From IMG/VR virus record IMGVR_UViG_2597490154_000001: a DNA stretch of 48,488 bases. One strand, 5' to 3'. Below the pieces are notes generated by a model, which saw nothing but the letters and a program-made list of their open reading frames with translations, did not search any database and had not been told where the DNA came from. Of this stretch, positions 12,418 through 23,519 are shown one piece after another. The DNA comes from a virus (Duplodnaviria; Heunggongvirae; Uroviricota; Caudoviricetes). Within the stretch, counting starts at the first letter, position 1. Every line of letters starts with the position of its first letter. The position numbers and the translations under genes were made by a program.

Positions 12418-12546
12418 CTGGAGTTAGGCCAGTAGTATGATGCTCGCAAAACGAGATCCAATTTAGATCCTTTTACTGGTGGATTATCGTTCGATCAGTG
12501 AGAGACTTCGTGCATGACCGAAAGTGTTGTGGTAGAGTTCTCTTAA

Positions 12547-12563
12547 AACCACGTAACGTGGTT
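12547..12563. promoter_or_regulatory. palindromic operator-like site AACCACGTAACGTGGTT in the repA control region
   Basis: Perfect inverted repeat, same ACCAC-N5-GTGGT architecture as the sites in the cI/cro intergenic region. Confidence 0.45.
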
Positions 12564-12605
12564 ATGATTGTGGGTGTCTGGTTGGAAACTGACCAGATAT
12601 GGAAA

Positions 12606-12716
12606 CAAAAAGCCCGCAGATAAATCTGCGGGCTTCTTGCGACATCCACGGAAAACCAACAACAACAATCCATGGGCGCCTCGACAACTCCCATTATACG
12701 TTGGTTTTCCGTGGAC
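12606..12716 (-). ncRNA. candidate CopA-like antisense RNA of the IncFII-type replicon
   Basis: Large stem-loop (CCACGGAAAACCAAC ... GTTGGTTTTCCGTGG, 12647-12715) plus a hairpin at 12610-12634 that on the - strand is followed by a T-run; lies in the repA leader. Confidence 0.45.
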
Positions 12717-12730
12717 GCAAGAGCGAACAT

Positions 12731-13579
12731 ATGGATAGACCAATGCCGTCTCTACGTTCCGCTTACGTTTGTAATTTGTCGCCGGAGTTCCAGCCTCCAA
12801 AGCACCATACGCACAAGCTGCCGCTAGTGTTATCTGATGCTTTACAGCGCATTAATGGTCGTGATCTTACGTGTGAGGTTGCGTTCTACGTTAATCAGCC
12901 GTCAGAGCGGAAGCGCCGGATAAACGAGCATCGTCGTCGGGCGATTAATGCTGTGATTGCTGCGATTTTGCACCATGTAAACATCATTTCTAAGCGGGTT
13001 CTGGCCAGTGCTGAGGCGTTGGCTGATTTTTGCGGCCTGTCTACCGTATCCGAAGCTGGGAACAAGTCTATAACACGCTGTACAAGGGCGTTGTCGCAAC
13101 TGAAAGCGTTAGGTTTTATTGATTATGAACGTCGCTGGGATCGGGTGAATAAACAGTATTGGCCAGCGAAAATAGAGATTCGTGATCAACTGCTGGAAAC
13201 CGTTGGTATTACTGAACAAGCATGGAGACGTGCGGTTAGCCAGAAACTTAATTACTTCAATGCGAAGAATAGCGAACGGCTTAAAAAAGCGATAACGGAG
13301 GCTGATTATAAGCGTATTGTTATGCAGGAGCAGATGGAGAATGTATGGCGTCAGAGGAAGACAGCCAGAGAGATAAAGGCAAAACAGAAAGCAGCGGAGA
13401 GAGCTGCGCGTCTTGTTCAGGAAAAGGGAGAGGCCGAACTTCGTCATCAAATCACTAGAGAGGTTAGCCAGGAATTTGCTGATGGCATGTATCCTGGTGC
13501 TGACCTTGCATATTTACGATCCCTCGTTGAGCAGCGTTATAACAGGTTAAGAAAGACCTGGAAATCACTCCAACATTAA
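12731..13579 (+). CDS. repA: plasmid replication initiator RepA1 (IncFII RepA family)
   Basis: Clear similarity to R100/R1 RepA1 as I recall it (SITRxTRAL...LG(F/L)I.Y block, RRRAI motif); start set at internal ATG 12731 because 12599-12730 covers leader RNA structures. Confidence 0.85.
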   Translation: MDRPMPSLRSAYVCNLSPEFQPPKHHTHKLPLVLSDALQRINGRDLTCEVAFYVNQPSERKRRINEHRRRAINAVIAAILHHVNIISKRVLASAEALADFCGLSTVSEAGNKSITRCTRALSQLKALGFIDYERRWDRVNKQYWPAKIEIRDQLLETVGITEQAWRRAVSQKLNYFNAKNSERLKKAITEADYKRIVMQEQMENVWRQRKTAREIKAKQKAAERAARLVQEKGEAELRHQITREVSQEFADGMYPGADLAYLRSLVEQRYNRLRKTWKSLQH

Positions 13580-13860
13580 CCCACCTGAATGATGAATCCG
13601 GTTTTACCGGAGGATTATCTACGTCGCAATAAAATATCTGTTCAAAAAACAACCTAAATTAATTTTCTCTAAACCTGAACACAGCAAAAATATCGCCTTC
13701 ACAGGCATCGGCTAATAAAGTTATCCACAGTTTTGATATGTATATGCAAATGGTTTTTTATAATAGATGCACTAAACAAATAAATGCAAAATCACTTTCT
13801 TTTATTAAGACTTTCTTTATTTAACTTACACAGGCTTTGCCTGTGAATATGTTCGCCCTT
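13580..13860. other. probable replication origin region (oriR-like) with DnaA box
   Basis: AT-rich non-coding stretch just downstream of repA; TTATCCACA at 13721-13729. Confidence 0.5.
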
Positions 13861-17377: not shown

Positions 17378-18520
17378 TTATGGTCTGCTTTTCTGTGCCA
17401 GCTTATCAGCACATGTTTTTATCAGATCCTGTAGTGTCCTGGCTGGCAGGTTTGCATCCAGTACGCTGAGTATGCTGTTGTGATCAGCCTGGTCGATTAC
17501 TTTGCCTGTCGGTGGTAGTAGCTTGAGCTGAGGATTCAGGTTTTCGTCAAAACTGATAAGTGCTCTGGCGTTTCTGAGCAGATCAAGAAGTAAGGCTGAT
17601 ATCACATCATCTTTAGTCATTGTTGGTAGATTTAGTGCCGCTTTAGTTTTCTCCGTCGCCTTGTCAAACTCTTTGATTAGTGTCTTGCGGTAGTTTGGTT
17701 CCGTTAATAGCCGATGATGTTCTGTTGCCGTTCGGATAATCTTTGTTTCCTGATACAGTCGGTTGTATAGCATTCGCTCGTATTCTGCCTTTAACACGCT
17801 GCTGATAGCGTTAAAGGCTTCAATGTAGGCCAGCTTGATATCCTTCACGCCTGGACCGTCGATACTTTCCATGAGCAAGGTAAATCCGTCTTTTGTCATG
17901 CGATAGATTGTTATTTCGCGGTCGCTTCCTTCCAGCGGTCGTTGTTCTTTAAAGAAGTGACGCGCCGCAGCCGTGCGAGGAATGCGTAACGCATCGATGG
18001 CCATAACGATGGAATTGTTTGTGGTGCTGAATGCTTGGGCAACATCGGCTGAGGTTGTGAGTGGCTCGTTGTTGCACACCTTAACGTAATACATTGGTTT
18101 AGCGTTGAGCGTATCGACAACCTCACGAGCATTGTTTGGTGAGACGGTTACGGTCGCGGCCGTTTGCGCGTTCTGGTTGAAGTAGCAGTCTTCCAGCCGT
18201 TCGAATACATCCCATGCCTGATCGGTTTCGAGCATTTTAGCGTGACGTGCAGCCCCGCGTTCGGTCCAGAGGATGAGCTTTCTAACGTTATTCGCGATGG
18301 TTTGAAAATCTCTTAAAGAGATTTTCAAACTTTGGAGATCTGTACCTTTTACAACTATGAAATGTTTTCCTTCTGTAAACCGGGACTTATTACGGTGGTG
18401 ATTTCTGTGAAGACATTCGACGCTACAGCCATATAGTTTGGCAAGCAGCTCCGTGGTGATAACGGGGAGCTGGTTATGCAGGATAGGCTGTAGGGTGTTA
18501 ACGGTCGGAAGCGTTTTCAT
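17378..18520 (-). CDS. phage antirepressor (KilA-N/ORF6N-type N-terminus with Ant-like C-terminal part)
   Basis: 380-aa ORF; N-terminal region resembles antirepressor N-domains; start overlaps the upstream small ORF (ATGA). Confidence 0.6.
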   Translation of the reverse strand: MKTLPTVNTLQPILHNQLPVITTELLAKLYGCSVECLHRNHHRNKSRFTEGKHFIVVKGTDLQSLKISLRDFQTIANNVRKLILWTERGAARHAKMLETDQAWDVFERLEDCYFNQNAQTAATVTVSPNNAREVVDTLNAKPMYYVKVCNNEPLTTSADVAQAFSTTNNSIVMAIDALRIPRTAAARHFFKEQRPLEGSDREITIYRMTKDGFTLLMESIDGPGVKDIKLAYIEAFNAISSVLKAEYERMLYNRLYQETKIIRTATEHHRLLTEPNYRKTLIKEFDKATEKTKAALNLPTMTKDDVISALLLDLLRNARALISFDENLNPQLKLLPPTGKVIDQADHNSILSVLDANLPARTLQDLIKTCADKLAQKSRP

Positions 18521-18708
18521 TTTGCACCTCCCATAACTACTTTGGTTACGAGGGAGATTTTTGCGACAGAAACAGCGTTATCGTTGCTGGCGATGCGCAT
18601 AGCTTCGCGCTCGATGATTTCAGCCAGGCGGAATTTATCGGCGTATGAGGCTTTCTTGAGAAGGATCTTTACGAGGTTGACGTAATAGTCATGGGGTAGG
18701 TTTGTCAT
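18517..18708 (-). CDS. small protein translationally coupled to the antirepressor (in the position P1 icd occupies)
   Basis: 63-aa ORF, 4-nt overlap with ant start; preceded by antisense-RNA-like hairpins. Confidence 0.4.
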   Translation of the reverse strand: MTNLPHDYYVNLVKILLKKASYADKFRLAEIIEREAMRIASNDNAVSVAKISLVTKVVMGGAK

Positions 18709-18865
18709 TGTGATGATTCCCTTAAAGGTTAAGGATACTCACCACCGTCAGGTTCCAATCATTGGGTGGTGAGACGTGCAGGGTTGGAACTACCGGACAC
18801 AATGACGAACCGGCGAGTCTTACGACTCCCCCGCACGCCCCACCATAATTTGGGTGTAGCAGTGC

Positions 18866-18960
18866 TTTACGCATAAAAAAACCGCTAACGCGGTATGCGC
18901 CATTGTGTCTACGGGGTTCCAATCCCGACCGTAGATTTTGCTACGGCTAGGAAAGTGTCC
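18866..18960 (-). ncRNA. candidate c4-like antisense RNA with its own terminator
   Basis: Hairpin 18911-18934 displays GGTTCCAATC in the loop; - strand terminator (ACCGCG..CGCGGT then T7) at 18866-18890; complementary elements at 18750-18760 and 18783-18790 in the icd-like leader. Confidence 0.35.
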
Positions 18961-19112
18961 ACCAATGGCGCATTTATGTCAATACGGCGGGATTTTAACA
19001 GAGACAACCACATAGCGTGGGTTTGAAAAACGGAATTTTCTGCTCATTAAGCGCATGATTTGACCAATCAAATTTGTTTGATACTGAATTTTGGGAATAT
19101 CATGTGAATATA

Positions 19113-19219
19113 AGGAACTTTAACGTGAGCGTTGGGAACTTAACGTGATTTATTGTTGAAAAAAGTTGCTTTGCATCCAATTTTTTGGATATGATTTGAA
19201 TGTAGGGAACTTCATTGTA
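19113..19219. promoter_or_regulatory. three direct repeats (GGAACTT(T)AACGTGA-like) around a putative promoter for gene 19282
   Basis: Repeats at 19113-19128, 19134-19148, 19205-19219; -35/-10-like TTGCTT/TATGAT between them. Confidence 0.4.
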
Positions 19220-19281
19220 TTGGATGTGGTTTCTTTTGAGAATGGAAATTGGTAGTGAATTTAATGCAGAGGAGGTAAAAA

Positions 19282-19854
19282 ATGACTGAACTGTCAAAAA
19301 ACTCATGTTTTTCAACAATTCACCTAATGATCATAAAAGAACTTAGGCTAGAAAGAGGTGTGCATCAAGGAGTGCTGGCTCAAGCGGCTGGAAAAACACC
19401 AAACGCATGGACAAAGATAGAGAACGGGCAGTCTGTATTAACGGTTGATGCTCTTTTTGGTGCTTGCTCTGCCCTTAATATTAGTCCAATGAATTTCATG
19501 TTGTTGGTAGAAAAACTGATTCCCGAATTTAATCGCTGTGGTTACTACTTTTTCCCTGGAACAATCGATCAGGATGAGGATAACCTTTTGCCTCTGATGC
19601 TGAGTTACTTCAACAGCAAGGGGTTTGAAGCATTGAGAAATAGGCCATTCGAAAGAGTTAGCATTAGCTCAATGGGATTCTCATTTGGGGGCGGCATCCC
19701 TGTTACTCCAACTGCTGTAATGTATTGTTGCGATGAAGCATATAGAAATTGGGTCGATAACGGCGCTGATATGGATAATCGAGATTATCTGGAGTCATCA
19801 ATAGGTCTTGGACGGTTTTTAATGAGTGAAGAAACAAAAAAACCGTCCTATTGA
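19282..19854 (+). CDS. HTH (XRE-like) N-terminal domain protein with ~110-aa C-terminal domain of unknown function
   Basis: 190-aa ORF with strong SD; stand-alone transcription unit with its own terminator. Confidence 0.55.
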   Translation: MTELSKNSCFSTIHLMIIKELRLERGVHQGVLAQAAGKTPNAWTKIENGQSVLTVDALFGACSALNISPMNFMLLVEKLIPEFNRCGYYFFPGTIDQDEDNLLPLMLSYFNSKGFEALRNRPFERVSISSMGFSFGGGIPVTPTAVMYCCDEAYRNWVDNGADMDNRDYLESSIGLGRFLMSEETKKPSY

Positions 19855-21721: not shown

Positions 21722-22096
21722 TCAGAGGTCAGCTATCGTTGATATCAGTTGATTTGCTAGCTGTCGCTGTTTACGTGAGAGGGTTAGAGCAGCTTCTGAG
21801 CGGTCGCTAAGAGGGGTGTTTTCATCGAGAATCATGAGGCATACAGAAATAATAGCCCTGTTATATGCCATCAATGGCTGGCACAGCTTCGATATCGCTG
21901 GCACATCGTATTGTAAGGCCGTTTTGAGGCAGACTTTTTGTTCTGATGCCAGATGAAGGATAGATTCTATCCAGTCGATATCTTTCTCATTATCAATGAG
22001 TTGGCATAACATACACTCAATCGCTATGTTCAACGCTTGGATTTCGATTCCAGCAGTGATCAGAGTTTCGTTTTTATTGGCTGTATGTAATTCCAT
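21722..22096 (-). CDS. hypothetical protein encoded immediately downstream of the CI-like repressor gene
   Basis: 124-aa ORF; operator-like palindrome lies between it and cI. Confidence 0.45.
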   Translation of the reverse strand: MELHTANKNETLITAGIEIQALNIAIECMLCQLIDNEKDIDWIESILHLASEQKVCLKTALQYDVPAISKLCQPLMAYNRAIISVCLMILDENTPLSDRSEAALTLSRKQRQLANQLISTIADL

Positions 22097-22130: not shown

Positions 22131-22147
22131 AACCACAAATCGTGGTT
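22131..22147. promoter_or_regulatory. operator-like palindrome AACCACAAATCGTGGTT, also a hairpin
   Basis: Perfect ACCAC-N5-GTGGT palindrome followed by T7. Confidence 0.5.
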
Positions 22148-22188: not shown

Positions 22189-22851
22189 TCATAACCAGTT
22201 GACAACACTAACTACGCGGCCAAGAACTTTATAACGCTTAAATTCCTCGTTATTCAGATGCTTAGTGTTCATTTCAGCATCCCTTTCGGTTGACAGCATA
22301 ACAGCATTGTCACCCGGTATGACTCTACAGTGCCTCAAAACAACCAGGCCATTTCTGTCTTCAAGGGCATAGATCCCCTCATGAATCTCTGTATCGTCTG
22401 TATTAATCAGGACTTGGGAGCCAGGGGATATTGTTGGTGACATTAGCTTTAGCTCATCGTTGCTCTGGAGAACAGACAGAGACGATGGGTTGATGTTCTT
22501 GCTTCGTAGAATCTCCTGTTCTATCGCCAGCACTGGCTTTTCTCCGGCGTGCGATGCTATGTCATTTTTTATAGCTACAAGCCCAGGAATAACAGGTGCG
22601 TTAGTATTCTGGGGTGGGAACGGGTTATCTGTTAAGCACGCGATATAAGGCGCTGATGCTTTCAGGGCGTGCGCGATTTTCTTGATGGCAGGTATAGATG
22701 GTTGTCTTAATCCGGCCTCATAGTTCTGCAAGGTGCTTAAGCCTATTCCAGTGACTTGCTGGAGATCTCCGGCAGTCATGCCGGATTGTTTCCGTAGAGT
22801 CTGAATGCGCAGACCTATTTCTTTCTTGATGTTCTCGTCGTTGCTTTTCAT
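22189..22851 (-). CDS. CI-like prophage repressor (HTH plus S24 LexA-like peptidase domain)
   Basis: 220-aa ORF; N-terminal HTH; C-terminal Ser (LMSPTISPG) and Lys (RYKVLGRVV) motifs typical of autocleaving repressors. Confidence 0.8.
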   Translation of the reverse strand: MKSNDENIKKEIGLRIQTLRKQSGMTAGDLQQVTGIGLSTLQNYEAGLRQPSIPAIKKIAHALKASAPYIACLTDNPFPPQNTNAPVIPGLVAIKNDIASHAGEKPVLAIEQEILRSKNINPSSLSVLQSNDELKLMSPTISPGSQVLINTDDTEIHEGIYALEDRNGLVVLRHCRVIPGDNAVMLSTERDAEMNTKHLNNEEFKRYKVLGRVVSVVNWL

Positions 22852-22887: not shown

Positions 22888-23008
22888 TTACCACATTTAG
22901 TGGTTTTCACACGGTAAGACGAGAGGTAGACCACAAATAGAAGGTTATTTTTTGTTTCCCCATTGAAAAACTCACGATTTGTGGTTTTAATACCACATAT
23001 CGTGGTTT
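22888..23008. promoter_or_regulatory. divergent cI/cro-type promoter-operator region
   Basis: Palindromes ACCACATTTAGTGGTT (22890-22905) and ACCACATATCGTGGTT (22992-23007), plus two degenerate copies. Confidence 0.6.
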
Positions 23009-23024: not shown

Positions 23025-23519
23025 ATGACCTTTCAGGAGTGGGTTGATGAAAATGGAGGCCAAATTGGTGTTGCCAGAAAGTTTGGCTTTACGTCATCAC
23101 TGATTGGTGCCTGGTATCGCTTCGAGAGATTCCCTCGTGCGGATAACCTGACGCTGCTGGTGGCGTATTCGGAAGGCCGGATTAATGTCCAGCAATGGGC
23201 GGCAGATTTTGCCGAACGTCAGCGCCAGCGTAGCGATGGCACATCGGTTCGGCAGAACAAGATCAAAGGGAATCTCCCTGTTAACTGCTTATCAAGGTTG
23301 AAAGCGGTTTTCTCTGAGCTGGGAATGCCTGCGGAGCATTGCAATCTACGCGGTCCGCGATTCATTGCTCGCTGGAAACACTCACACGTAACCGTTTCAG
23401 AGGTTCGTGATGCGATTGCCATGCTGGAGTTTAAGAATAAAGATTCCAGCGATATCGAGCTGATTCATAAGGAGATTAGCAACGCTCGGCGTTCAGCACT
23501 TGGGAGGCTTGAGGAATGA
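23025..23519 (+). CDS. Cro-like HTH regulator, divergent from cI
   Basis: 164-aa ORF; position and N-terminal HTH-like segment. Confidence 0.45.
   Translation: MTFQEWVDENGGQIGVARKFGFTSSLIGAWYRFERFPRADNLTLLVAYSEGRINVQQWAADFAERQRQRSDGTSVRQNKIKGNLPVNCLSRLKAVFSELGMPAEHCNLRGPRFIARWKHSHVTVSEVRDAIAMLEFKNKDSSDIELIHKEISNARRSALGRLEE

Follow-up and report, generated by a model that had tools for sequence, protein, structure and literature searches.

A CI-type operator motif at the predicted repA promoter of an IncFII-type phage-plasmid: a candidate link between phage immunity and plasmid replication

The switch of a phage-plasmid between low-copy inheritance and high-copy lytic replication is, to our knowledge, understood for few models only (P1 and N15). 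The phage-plasmid considered here raises the question of whether such a switch could act directly on an IncFII-type replicon: its replication gene repA is preceded by a perfect palindrome, AACCACGTAACGTGGTT, termed Orep below, for which a preliminary description had proposed that the lysogeny repressor or Cro gates replication. As we infer from motif identity, phylogenetic footprinting and position, gating of repA by CI or by the Cro-like protein would be the best explanation of this element. The features on which the argument depends are collected in Table 1.

Table 1. Positions of the replication-control and immunity features discussed in the text
Feature	Position	Strand	Remarks
Promoter P1	12414..12441	+	TTGACT-16-TATGAT; promoter scan, 10/12 matches; at the end of the invertase gene
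Promoter P2 (predicted)	12530..12538	+	Extended -10 TGgTAGAGT; predicted start near 12545; read from conservation and alignment
Orep, candidate CI/Cro operator	12547..12563	.	Perfect 17-bp palindrome, AACCACG-TAA-CGTGGTT
CopA-like antisense RNA gene (predicted)	12603..12725	-	Long hairpin 12644-12716 and intrinsic terminator 12606-12639
repA	12743..13579	+	IncFII-family initiator, 278 aa; Pfam IncFII_repA
DnaA-box-like sequence	13721..13729	+	TTATCCACA; in the presumed oriR downstream of repA, by analogy with IncFII organisation
ORF6N/Rha antirepressor-like gene	17378-18708		Downstream of the c4 RNA and orf63; Pfam ORF6N, Phage_pRha
c4-type antisense RNA, isrK-like RNA, a1/b1 target elements	18762..18960	-	Ahead of orf63 and the antirepressor-like gene
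One-mismatch operator	19007..19021	.	ACCACatagcGTGGG; upstream of the c4/ant operon; 18.9 bits vs 13.0 background
OL-like operator	22132..22146	.	ACCACaaatcGTGGT; between the 3' end of cI and the orf124-parA operon
cI-like repressor gene	22189..22851	-	XRE-type HTH, Pfam HTH_3 4.6e-11; C-terminal domain without recognisable S24 motif
OR-like operator cluster	22890..23006	.	Between cI and the cro-like gene; cluster in all relatives
Cro-like gene	23025..23519	+	164 aa; divergent from cI; N-terminus resembles a Cro/YdaS-type HTH by eye

The stretch of DNA analysed (the window, 48,488 bp) is the complete circular plasmid of E. coli ATCC 25922 (FDA strain Seattle 1946), a strain that most clinical laboratories keep, and is identical to that plasmid in sequence; window positions equal positions in NZ_CP149501.1 minus 10,733. 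It carries a full myovirus virion module, lysis genes and an invertible tail-fibre segment with a Hin-type invertase, together with an IncFII-family repA, a ParA system, a toxin–antitoxin pair and a divergent cI/cro-like pair. PLSDB contains about 60 near-identical plasmids, and the replicon was found in 70 of 5,426 complete E. coli genomes, plasmid-borne in every case. The family also occurs in Salmonella, Citrobacter, Klebsiella and Yokenella and, with other virion modules, in Serratia. Three phages that plate on Yersinia pestis (vB_YpM_39/41/44) are 98–99% identical to it across the 2.1-kb hin–repA region searched, which suggests that the phage-plasmid yields infectious particles. Because two Serratia plasmids and one IMG/VR contig combine the same repA–parA–cI–cro backbone with very different, unrelated virion modules, this backbone appears to move between phage types as a cassette. 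The backbone shared by Serratia pJSRIV006_2 (L006) and S. marcescens YL4 p2 (L149) reads repA–parA–cI–cro–Ref–DUF1064, and their virion modules are in one case lambda-like siphoviral and in the other a P2-like myovirus; the P2-like plasmid is the S. marcescens element with blaTEM-1. A search of genome contigs with RepA returned first nothing and then p1C44-type plasmids and one unrelated match only, and a metagenome scan with TAGAGTTCTNTTAAA, too unspecific a query, gave among the matches listed no locus with the replicon. The literature searched contained no description of this phage-plasmid family, nor of CI–repA coupling in it; vB_YpM_HQ103 (an unrelated 32-kb phage) and pSLy3 (a 114-kb plasmid) were considered as literature on the family and rejected.

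The motif ACCAC-N5-GTGGT has exactly four matches in the window (at 12548, 22132, 22890 and 22992), compared with 0.06 expected, and four were reached in none of 100 shuffles; by our own arithmetic, the expectation of one chance site in the ~325-bp hin–repA spacer is ~4e-4. A weight matrix trained on immunity-region sites of the Salmonella, C. amalonaticus and K. aerogenes relatives only gave the repA site 29.6 bits, rank 2 of 48,468 positions, the other top scores being 32.0 (22132), 28.5 (22992), 25.9 (22890), 24.2 (22971) and 18.9 (19007), followed by 13.0. As judged by sequence, the repA site equals the immunity-region sites in operator quality, and the architecture that the preliminary description had seen in common between this palindrome and the sites in the cI–cro interval and downstream of cI is borne out by the four exact matches and by the matrix rank. 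Its description as a palindrome ~180 bp upstream of repA likewise holds: the distance is 180 bp to the conserved repA start. The palindrome begins 9 nt past an invariant TGnTAGAGT, lies 40 nt upstream of the antisense-RNA terminator and can form a hairpin (-8.2 kcal/mol) where the predicted P2 transcript begins. Two further roles were considered for it. A Hin/Pin recombination (hix-type) site was rejected: the AAACC/GGTTT arms are 9 bp apart, not 2, the other three copies lie 10 kb away in the immunity region, and a scan for inverted repeats around the invertible segment did not implicate the palindrome. RepA autoregulation is unlikely, as the motif is absent downstream of repA, where the presumed oriR and the DnaA box lie.

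RepA is of the IncFII type, as had been stated (PF02387, E = 3.3e-44, spanning residues 5–271 of 278), and the start adopted here is conserved and is the one annotated in the Salmonella relatives. RefSeq/PGAP places the start at 12599 (326 aa), which yields an in-frame extension overlapping the antisense-RNA gene; this extension (12599–12742) is unconserved, with the ATG missing in Salmonella and frame-shifting indels in relatives. Upstream, the TGnTAGAGT of promoter P2 went undetected in a standard -35/-10 scan and is invariant in 6/6 aligned phage-plasmid replicons, including the Serratia type, in which RepA is only ~30% identical. MAFFT aligns it with TGcTAGATT of a classical IncFII plasmid, downstream of copB, and with TGaTAGATT of p1C44. 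In the classical plasmid, the copB stop is followed by a perfect palindrome, AAAGTAAAGaCTTTACTTT, then by TGcTAGATT and then by the leader; from knowledge of R1, we take AAAGTAAAGaCTTTACTTT to be the CopB operator over the -35, and TGcTAGATT is presumably the PrepA -10. Because TGcTAGATT aligns with TGnTAGAGT, promoter P2 is read as a PrepA homologue, which it looks like, and the palindrome would then lie at about +3 to +17. The palindrome had been said to occupy the position of the CopB-controlled repA promoter of classical IncFII replicons. The promoter part of that statement is supported by the alignment of the conserved -10 with the IncFII element downstream of copB, but the site sits at about +3 to +17 and not over the -35, where the CopB-operator-like palindrome sits. 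That no copB gene is present agrees with a tblastn search with R100-type CopB across the window, in which nothing was better than E = 1.5, and the hin–repA gap measures only 325 bp.

Promoter P1, the presumed counterpart of PcopB, is kept in the Salmonella, Citrobacter and Serratia lineages, and its -35 is replaced in Yokenella. The TATGAT at 12563–12568 was rejected as a repA -10 since it is unconserved, the relatives reading TATGAA, TAAGTA, TTTGGT and TTTGAG. Directly downstream of promoter P1, at 12460–12480, two GATC(C) motifs 11–13 nt apart are kept in every phage-plasmid lineage (seen at aligned positions in loci L003, L004, L006, L014 and L017), and repA of p1C44 and of IncK2/Z likewise has GATC clusters in front of it, a pattern that hints at Dam/SeqA sensitivity of the upstream promoter. 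The minus-strand segment 12725–12603 lies where a CopA-like antisense RNA would be expected and has the matching shape, with a predicted fold of -68 kcal/mol (z = -9.3) and, in the Yokenella lineage, a terminator stem altered by a compensatory change. Rfam assigned this RNA to no CopA or other curated family, and returned only sub-threshold hairpin-plus-terminator look-alikes, e.g. Thr_leader. A Tap homologue was sought and none was found; a candidate Tap-like ORF from 12672 varies by lineage in its frame relative to repA, and its ATG is missing in the Serratia type.

The rep control regions fall into three lineages (E. coli, Salmonella/C. freundii and Yokenella/C. amalonaticus), which are 68–75% identical, 55% of the columns being invariant. 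All three share the block TTTAAAACCACG....GTGGTTA without change, while its spacer reads TAAC, TTGT or ATGT. The arms and flanks of the repA site are thus invariant and 4/5 spacer positions are variable, a pattern of half-sites under purifying selection and a free spacer. In the same genomes, cI is closely followed by an exact site and separated from cro by an interval with three more sites, and because these genomes keep all of them, the repA, OL and OR sites behave as one regulon. CI homologues of 60–65% identity were found in Salmonella, Citrobacter freundii, C. amalonaticus, Klebsiella aerogenes and Yokenella, only in relatives of the phage-plasmid; indeed, all CI homologues at E<=1e-10 belong to the phage-plasmid family, and the half-sites are unchanged among them. 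The CI of Serratia is 33% identical, yet it keeps the recognition-helix stretch STLQNYE(A/S)G. In Serratia, the operators lack symmetry, GTGGTT being the strong half, and the repA site is built likewise, with ACCCCgaaatGTGGT following TGcTAGAGT and GTGGTT at an identical distance from the -10; in S. marcescens p2, 14 nt of the repA site (CGAAATGTGGTTTT) recur in the site downstream of cI. Because the Serratia repA site follows this asymmetric style, the repA site appears to track the local flavour of the immunity operators. No relatives with a different repressor specificity were found, all lineages sharing one operator specificity, and the tracking in Serratia is the nearest available approach to repressor/operator covariation at the level of these alignments.

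In the immunity region of the window, Pfam and PDB sequence searches with CI matched nothing of the S24/LexA type in its C-terminal domain, the PDB matches being to the HTH only, and the catalytic-serine position is Leu or a gap in three aligned homologues. These features suggest that CI is a non-self-cleaving repressor. The Cro-like protein gave no family match and belongs to phrog_7452, where its function is unassigned. The OR-like cluster comprises two exact sites (22890–22904 and 22992–23006), one site with 2 mismatches (22971–22985) and a half site (22930–22944); a putative TTGAAA-17-TTTAAT promoter in the cI–cro spacer was unconfirmed by the promoter scan. The OL-like site is exact in all relatives, with varying spacers, and in C. 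amalonaticus it reads ACCACgttacGTGGT, the E. coli repA site in reverse complement. The window copy, the best-scoring one, lies just past the hairpin that trails cI and directly upstream of the orf124–parA–orf82 operon (cf. 21722–22096, minus strand); it could be a looping partner for the OR cluster 750–870 bp off, or mediate CI control of the partition operon.

CI-type sites appear to be dispersed, as shown by the one-mismatch copy on the predicted promoter of the c4/ant operon, where it covers, in our own reading, the -35 region of a minus-strand extended -10, TGTTAAAAT. Rfam identified C4 (RF01695) at 18762–18850 on the minus strand with 77.8 bits (gathering threshold 45) and isrK (RF01394) with 67.7 bits (gathering threshold 50), and c4-a1b1 scored 38 bits, below gathering. 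The whole P1 immI-like module at 18762–18960 is unannotated in the RefSeq record. Because CI is without an S24 signature and a c4/ant module is present, induction would probably be antirepressor-mediated, not via direct RecA-stimulated CI cleavage; a search with the 20-mer LexA consensus at <=3 mismatches found no LexA box. Divergent from the c4/ant operon is a second HTH_3 regulator gene (19282–19854), upstream of which the direct repeats GGAACTTTAACGTGA, GGAACTTAACGTGA and GGAACTTCATTGTA occur at 19100–19230. These repeats may be the operator set of that HTH_3 regulator itself.

We judge it rather probable that the palindrome is a CI operator, very likely also bound by the Cro-like protein, at a PrepA-like promoter P2, with CI functionally replacing CopB and the antisense RNA exerting the main control. 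Several other readings deserve consideration. A phage protein might bind the site with another purpose, be it a Cro-only shut-off in lytic growth, a looping anchor for CI, or regulation by orf124 or orf82 in the manner of pSM19035 omega. A motif copy does lie directly upstream of the operon that encodes orf124, ParA and the small ParB-like orf82, and RepA, ParA, orf82, CI, the Cro-like protein and orf170 form a backbone that is inherited as a unit even where, as in the Serratia elements, the virion genes are unrelated, so the binder is unassignable by co-occurrence alone. We nevertheless consider this reading unlikely, given that three to four sites between divergent cI and cro genes are the classical CI/Cro arrangement, and that conservation of the CI recognition helix coincides exactly with that of the GTGGT half-site. 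Moreover, neither orf124 nor orf82 has a recognisable DNA-binding domain, and a tblastn search of the Serratia plasmids with orf124 returned nothing.

The palindrome might instead be an inherited IncFII leader hairpin that acts as RNA, for example as a transcript-stabilising 5' stem-loop or leader structure, its match to the CI motif being without consequence. Non-phage replicons do have a hairpin of this kind: in a classical IncFII plasmid, GCCAC-gccataag-GTGGC precedes the CopA terminator by 36 nt, p1C44 and a Pantoea plasmid carry ACCAC-gccaaaag-GTGGT, and IncK2/Z has GGATGC-gccataag-GCATTC, a compensated stem with the loop conserved, all of which recalls the window palindrome with its 40-nt distance from the antisense terminator and its -8.2 kcal/mol fold at the predicted 5' end. 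The p1C44 type is the closest non-phage replicon (RepA 37–38% identical). As an observation in its own right, the leaders of R100-type, p1C44-type and IncK2/Z plasmids share a hairpin with the loop GCCAWAAG and compensated stems upstream of the antisense terminator (L022, 313–333; L007, 33722–33739, minus strand; L019, 9802–9819; L021, ~1488–1507); the loop includes CGCCA, which is also found beside the repA start in IncK2/Z and p1C44 and could pair with the UUGGCG target loop.

In the phage-plasmids, by contrast, the loop GCCAWAAG is absent, the loop is variable and exactly 5 nt long, which is the operator spacing, and the arms are without any compensatory or G–U changes. The Serratia type, in which the left arm has decayed so that no hairpin forms, still has an invariant GTGGTT at the same distance from the -10. 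MAFFT furthermore puts the N8 hairpins and the N5 palindrome in different columns, and the expectation that arms and spacing would together fit the CI motif by chance within the 325-bp spacer is the ~4e-4 given above. A purely RNA-level role is, on this evidence, quite improbable. Because the non-phage relatives carry RCCAC-N8-GTGGY in the same leader, the palindrome may nonetheless descend from an ancestral element by exaptation, and an additional function as a 5' RNA hairpin is conceivable. The likeliest synthesis would be such an exaptation, in which the ancestral RCCAC...GTGGY RNA hairpin was re-spaced to an N5 protein operator. A functionless chance occurrence, which has the shortness of the motif and nothing else in its favour, can be dismissed as extremely improbable in view of the 0.06 sites expected per window, the 0/100 shuffles that reach four and the exact retention of the arms in lineages only 68–75% identical.

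If Orep is a CI operator, the following circuit may be envisaged. The main determinant of replication frequency would be the CopA-like antisense RNA, through its action on the repA leader. As long as the phage-plasmid persists as a plasmid-prophage, CI on Orep would keep promoter P2 shut and might partly roadblock transcripts from promoter P1, so that repA would be expressed from promoter P1 only, at a basal and antisense-controlled level. When CI is absent, either just after infection or upon inactivation (probably via the c4/ant antirepressor), promoter P2 would fire and raise the RepA supply, leading to fast establishment or lytic-mode replication, and the CI of a resident prophage would block replication of a superinfecting homoimmune genome. 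RepA may also drive lytic replication, because the early region contains no other recognisable replication initiator, helicase or loader; many of its ORFs are of unassigned function, and one encodes a DUF3560 protein with a weak match to a PHROG labelled 'primase'. It is conceivable, though doubtful, that a single repA–parA–cI–cro backbone provides one replicon for maintenance and lysis, switched by a single CI operator that was re-spaced from the IncFII hairpin RCCAC-N8-GTGGY at copB loss.

Two shorter circular records, both with replicon and virion genes, belong beside this circuit. One is NZ_CP172156.1 (38,999 bp). The other, pCREC-544_3 (NZ_CP024829.1, L023; 32,182 bp), is without cI, cro, parA, the early genes and lysis genes, which makes it a natural cI-less derivative unless it is an assembly artefact. 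If the record is genuine, CI would be auxiliary at most and not essential, like CopB, because this plasmid is without cI. Should CI or Cro gating of repA be true, the textbook CopA/CopB circuit would have been rewired, with a phage immunity repressor in CopB's place. Such coupling would explain how immunity could block the establishment of a superinfecting relative, and it predicts copy-number jumps, hence cargo gene-dosage effects, upon repressor inactivation.

Elements of this arrangement are familiar from other systems. In lambda, CI and Cro block O–P transcription (lambda-dv), and immunity thereby extends to replication of the superinfecting genome; the lambda replication genes lie inside the PR operon, whereas repA here has a separate promoter 10 kb from the immunity region with its own putative operator. 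The C1 regulon of phage P1 consists of dispersed operators, including those of the immI c4–icd–ant operon and of the lytic replicon repL. The likeness to phage P1 lies in the dispersed repressor sites around the plasmid-prophage, in a c4/antirepressor module under a repressor-controlled promoter and in a repressor set over a replication function, each of them predicted here. C1 of P1 acts on repL, a lytic replicon distinct from the plasmid replicon, which it does not control, and the C1 operators are 17-mers without symmetry; in the present phage-plasmid, both tasks appear to fall to one IncFII-type replicon, and the candidate operators are palindromic.

The hardware is that of R1/R100: the RepA family is the same, and a leader antisense RNA and two tandem promoters are predicted here as well, the downstream one having a homologous extended -10 (TGcTAGATT vs TGgTAGAGT) and being presumably repressor-controlled. 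In R1, PrepA is ~90% repressed at steady state, and pre-existing or excess CopB blocks establishment (PMC5717011). Derepression is likewise predicted here when the repressor is missing, on entry into a new cell or at low copy number. The two systems differ in that the phage-plasmid has no copB and no AAAGTAAAGaCTTTACTTT over the -35, the putative operator lying at the predicted transcription start instead, in that the presumed repressor is a phage immunity repressor encoded 9.6 kb away, and in that neither a Tap homologue nor an Rfam CopA match was found.

The closest parallel in regulatory logic is found in N15. The RepA initiator of N15 is large, multifunctional and unrelated to its IncFII namesake, the N15 prophage is linear, and we know of no CopA-type antisense control in its replicon. 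The likeness is functional, not familial: RepA here belongs to the IncFII family, and the CI family was found only in this phage-plasmid group. The N15 repressor CB binds three OR sites and two OL sites that overlap the repA promoter, resulting in copy-number control (PMC4488713). The CB-like logic of N15 and phiKO2, an immunity-repressor-type operator motif at the promoter of a replication gene, would recur here with one site in place of the two OL sites of N15, and binding has been demonstrated in N15, whereas here it is predicted from the motif. N15 also has a separate antirepressor immunity region under a small processed RNA, which parallels the c4/ant module described above. Coupling of repressor and replication is thus already known from N15, and what would be new here is the IncFII-type replicon: in its predicted form, the circuit combines the logic of N15 with the hardware of R1/R100 minus CopB.
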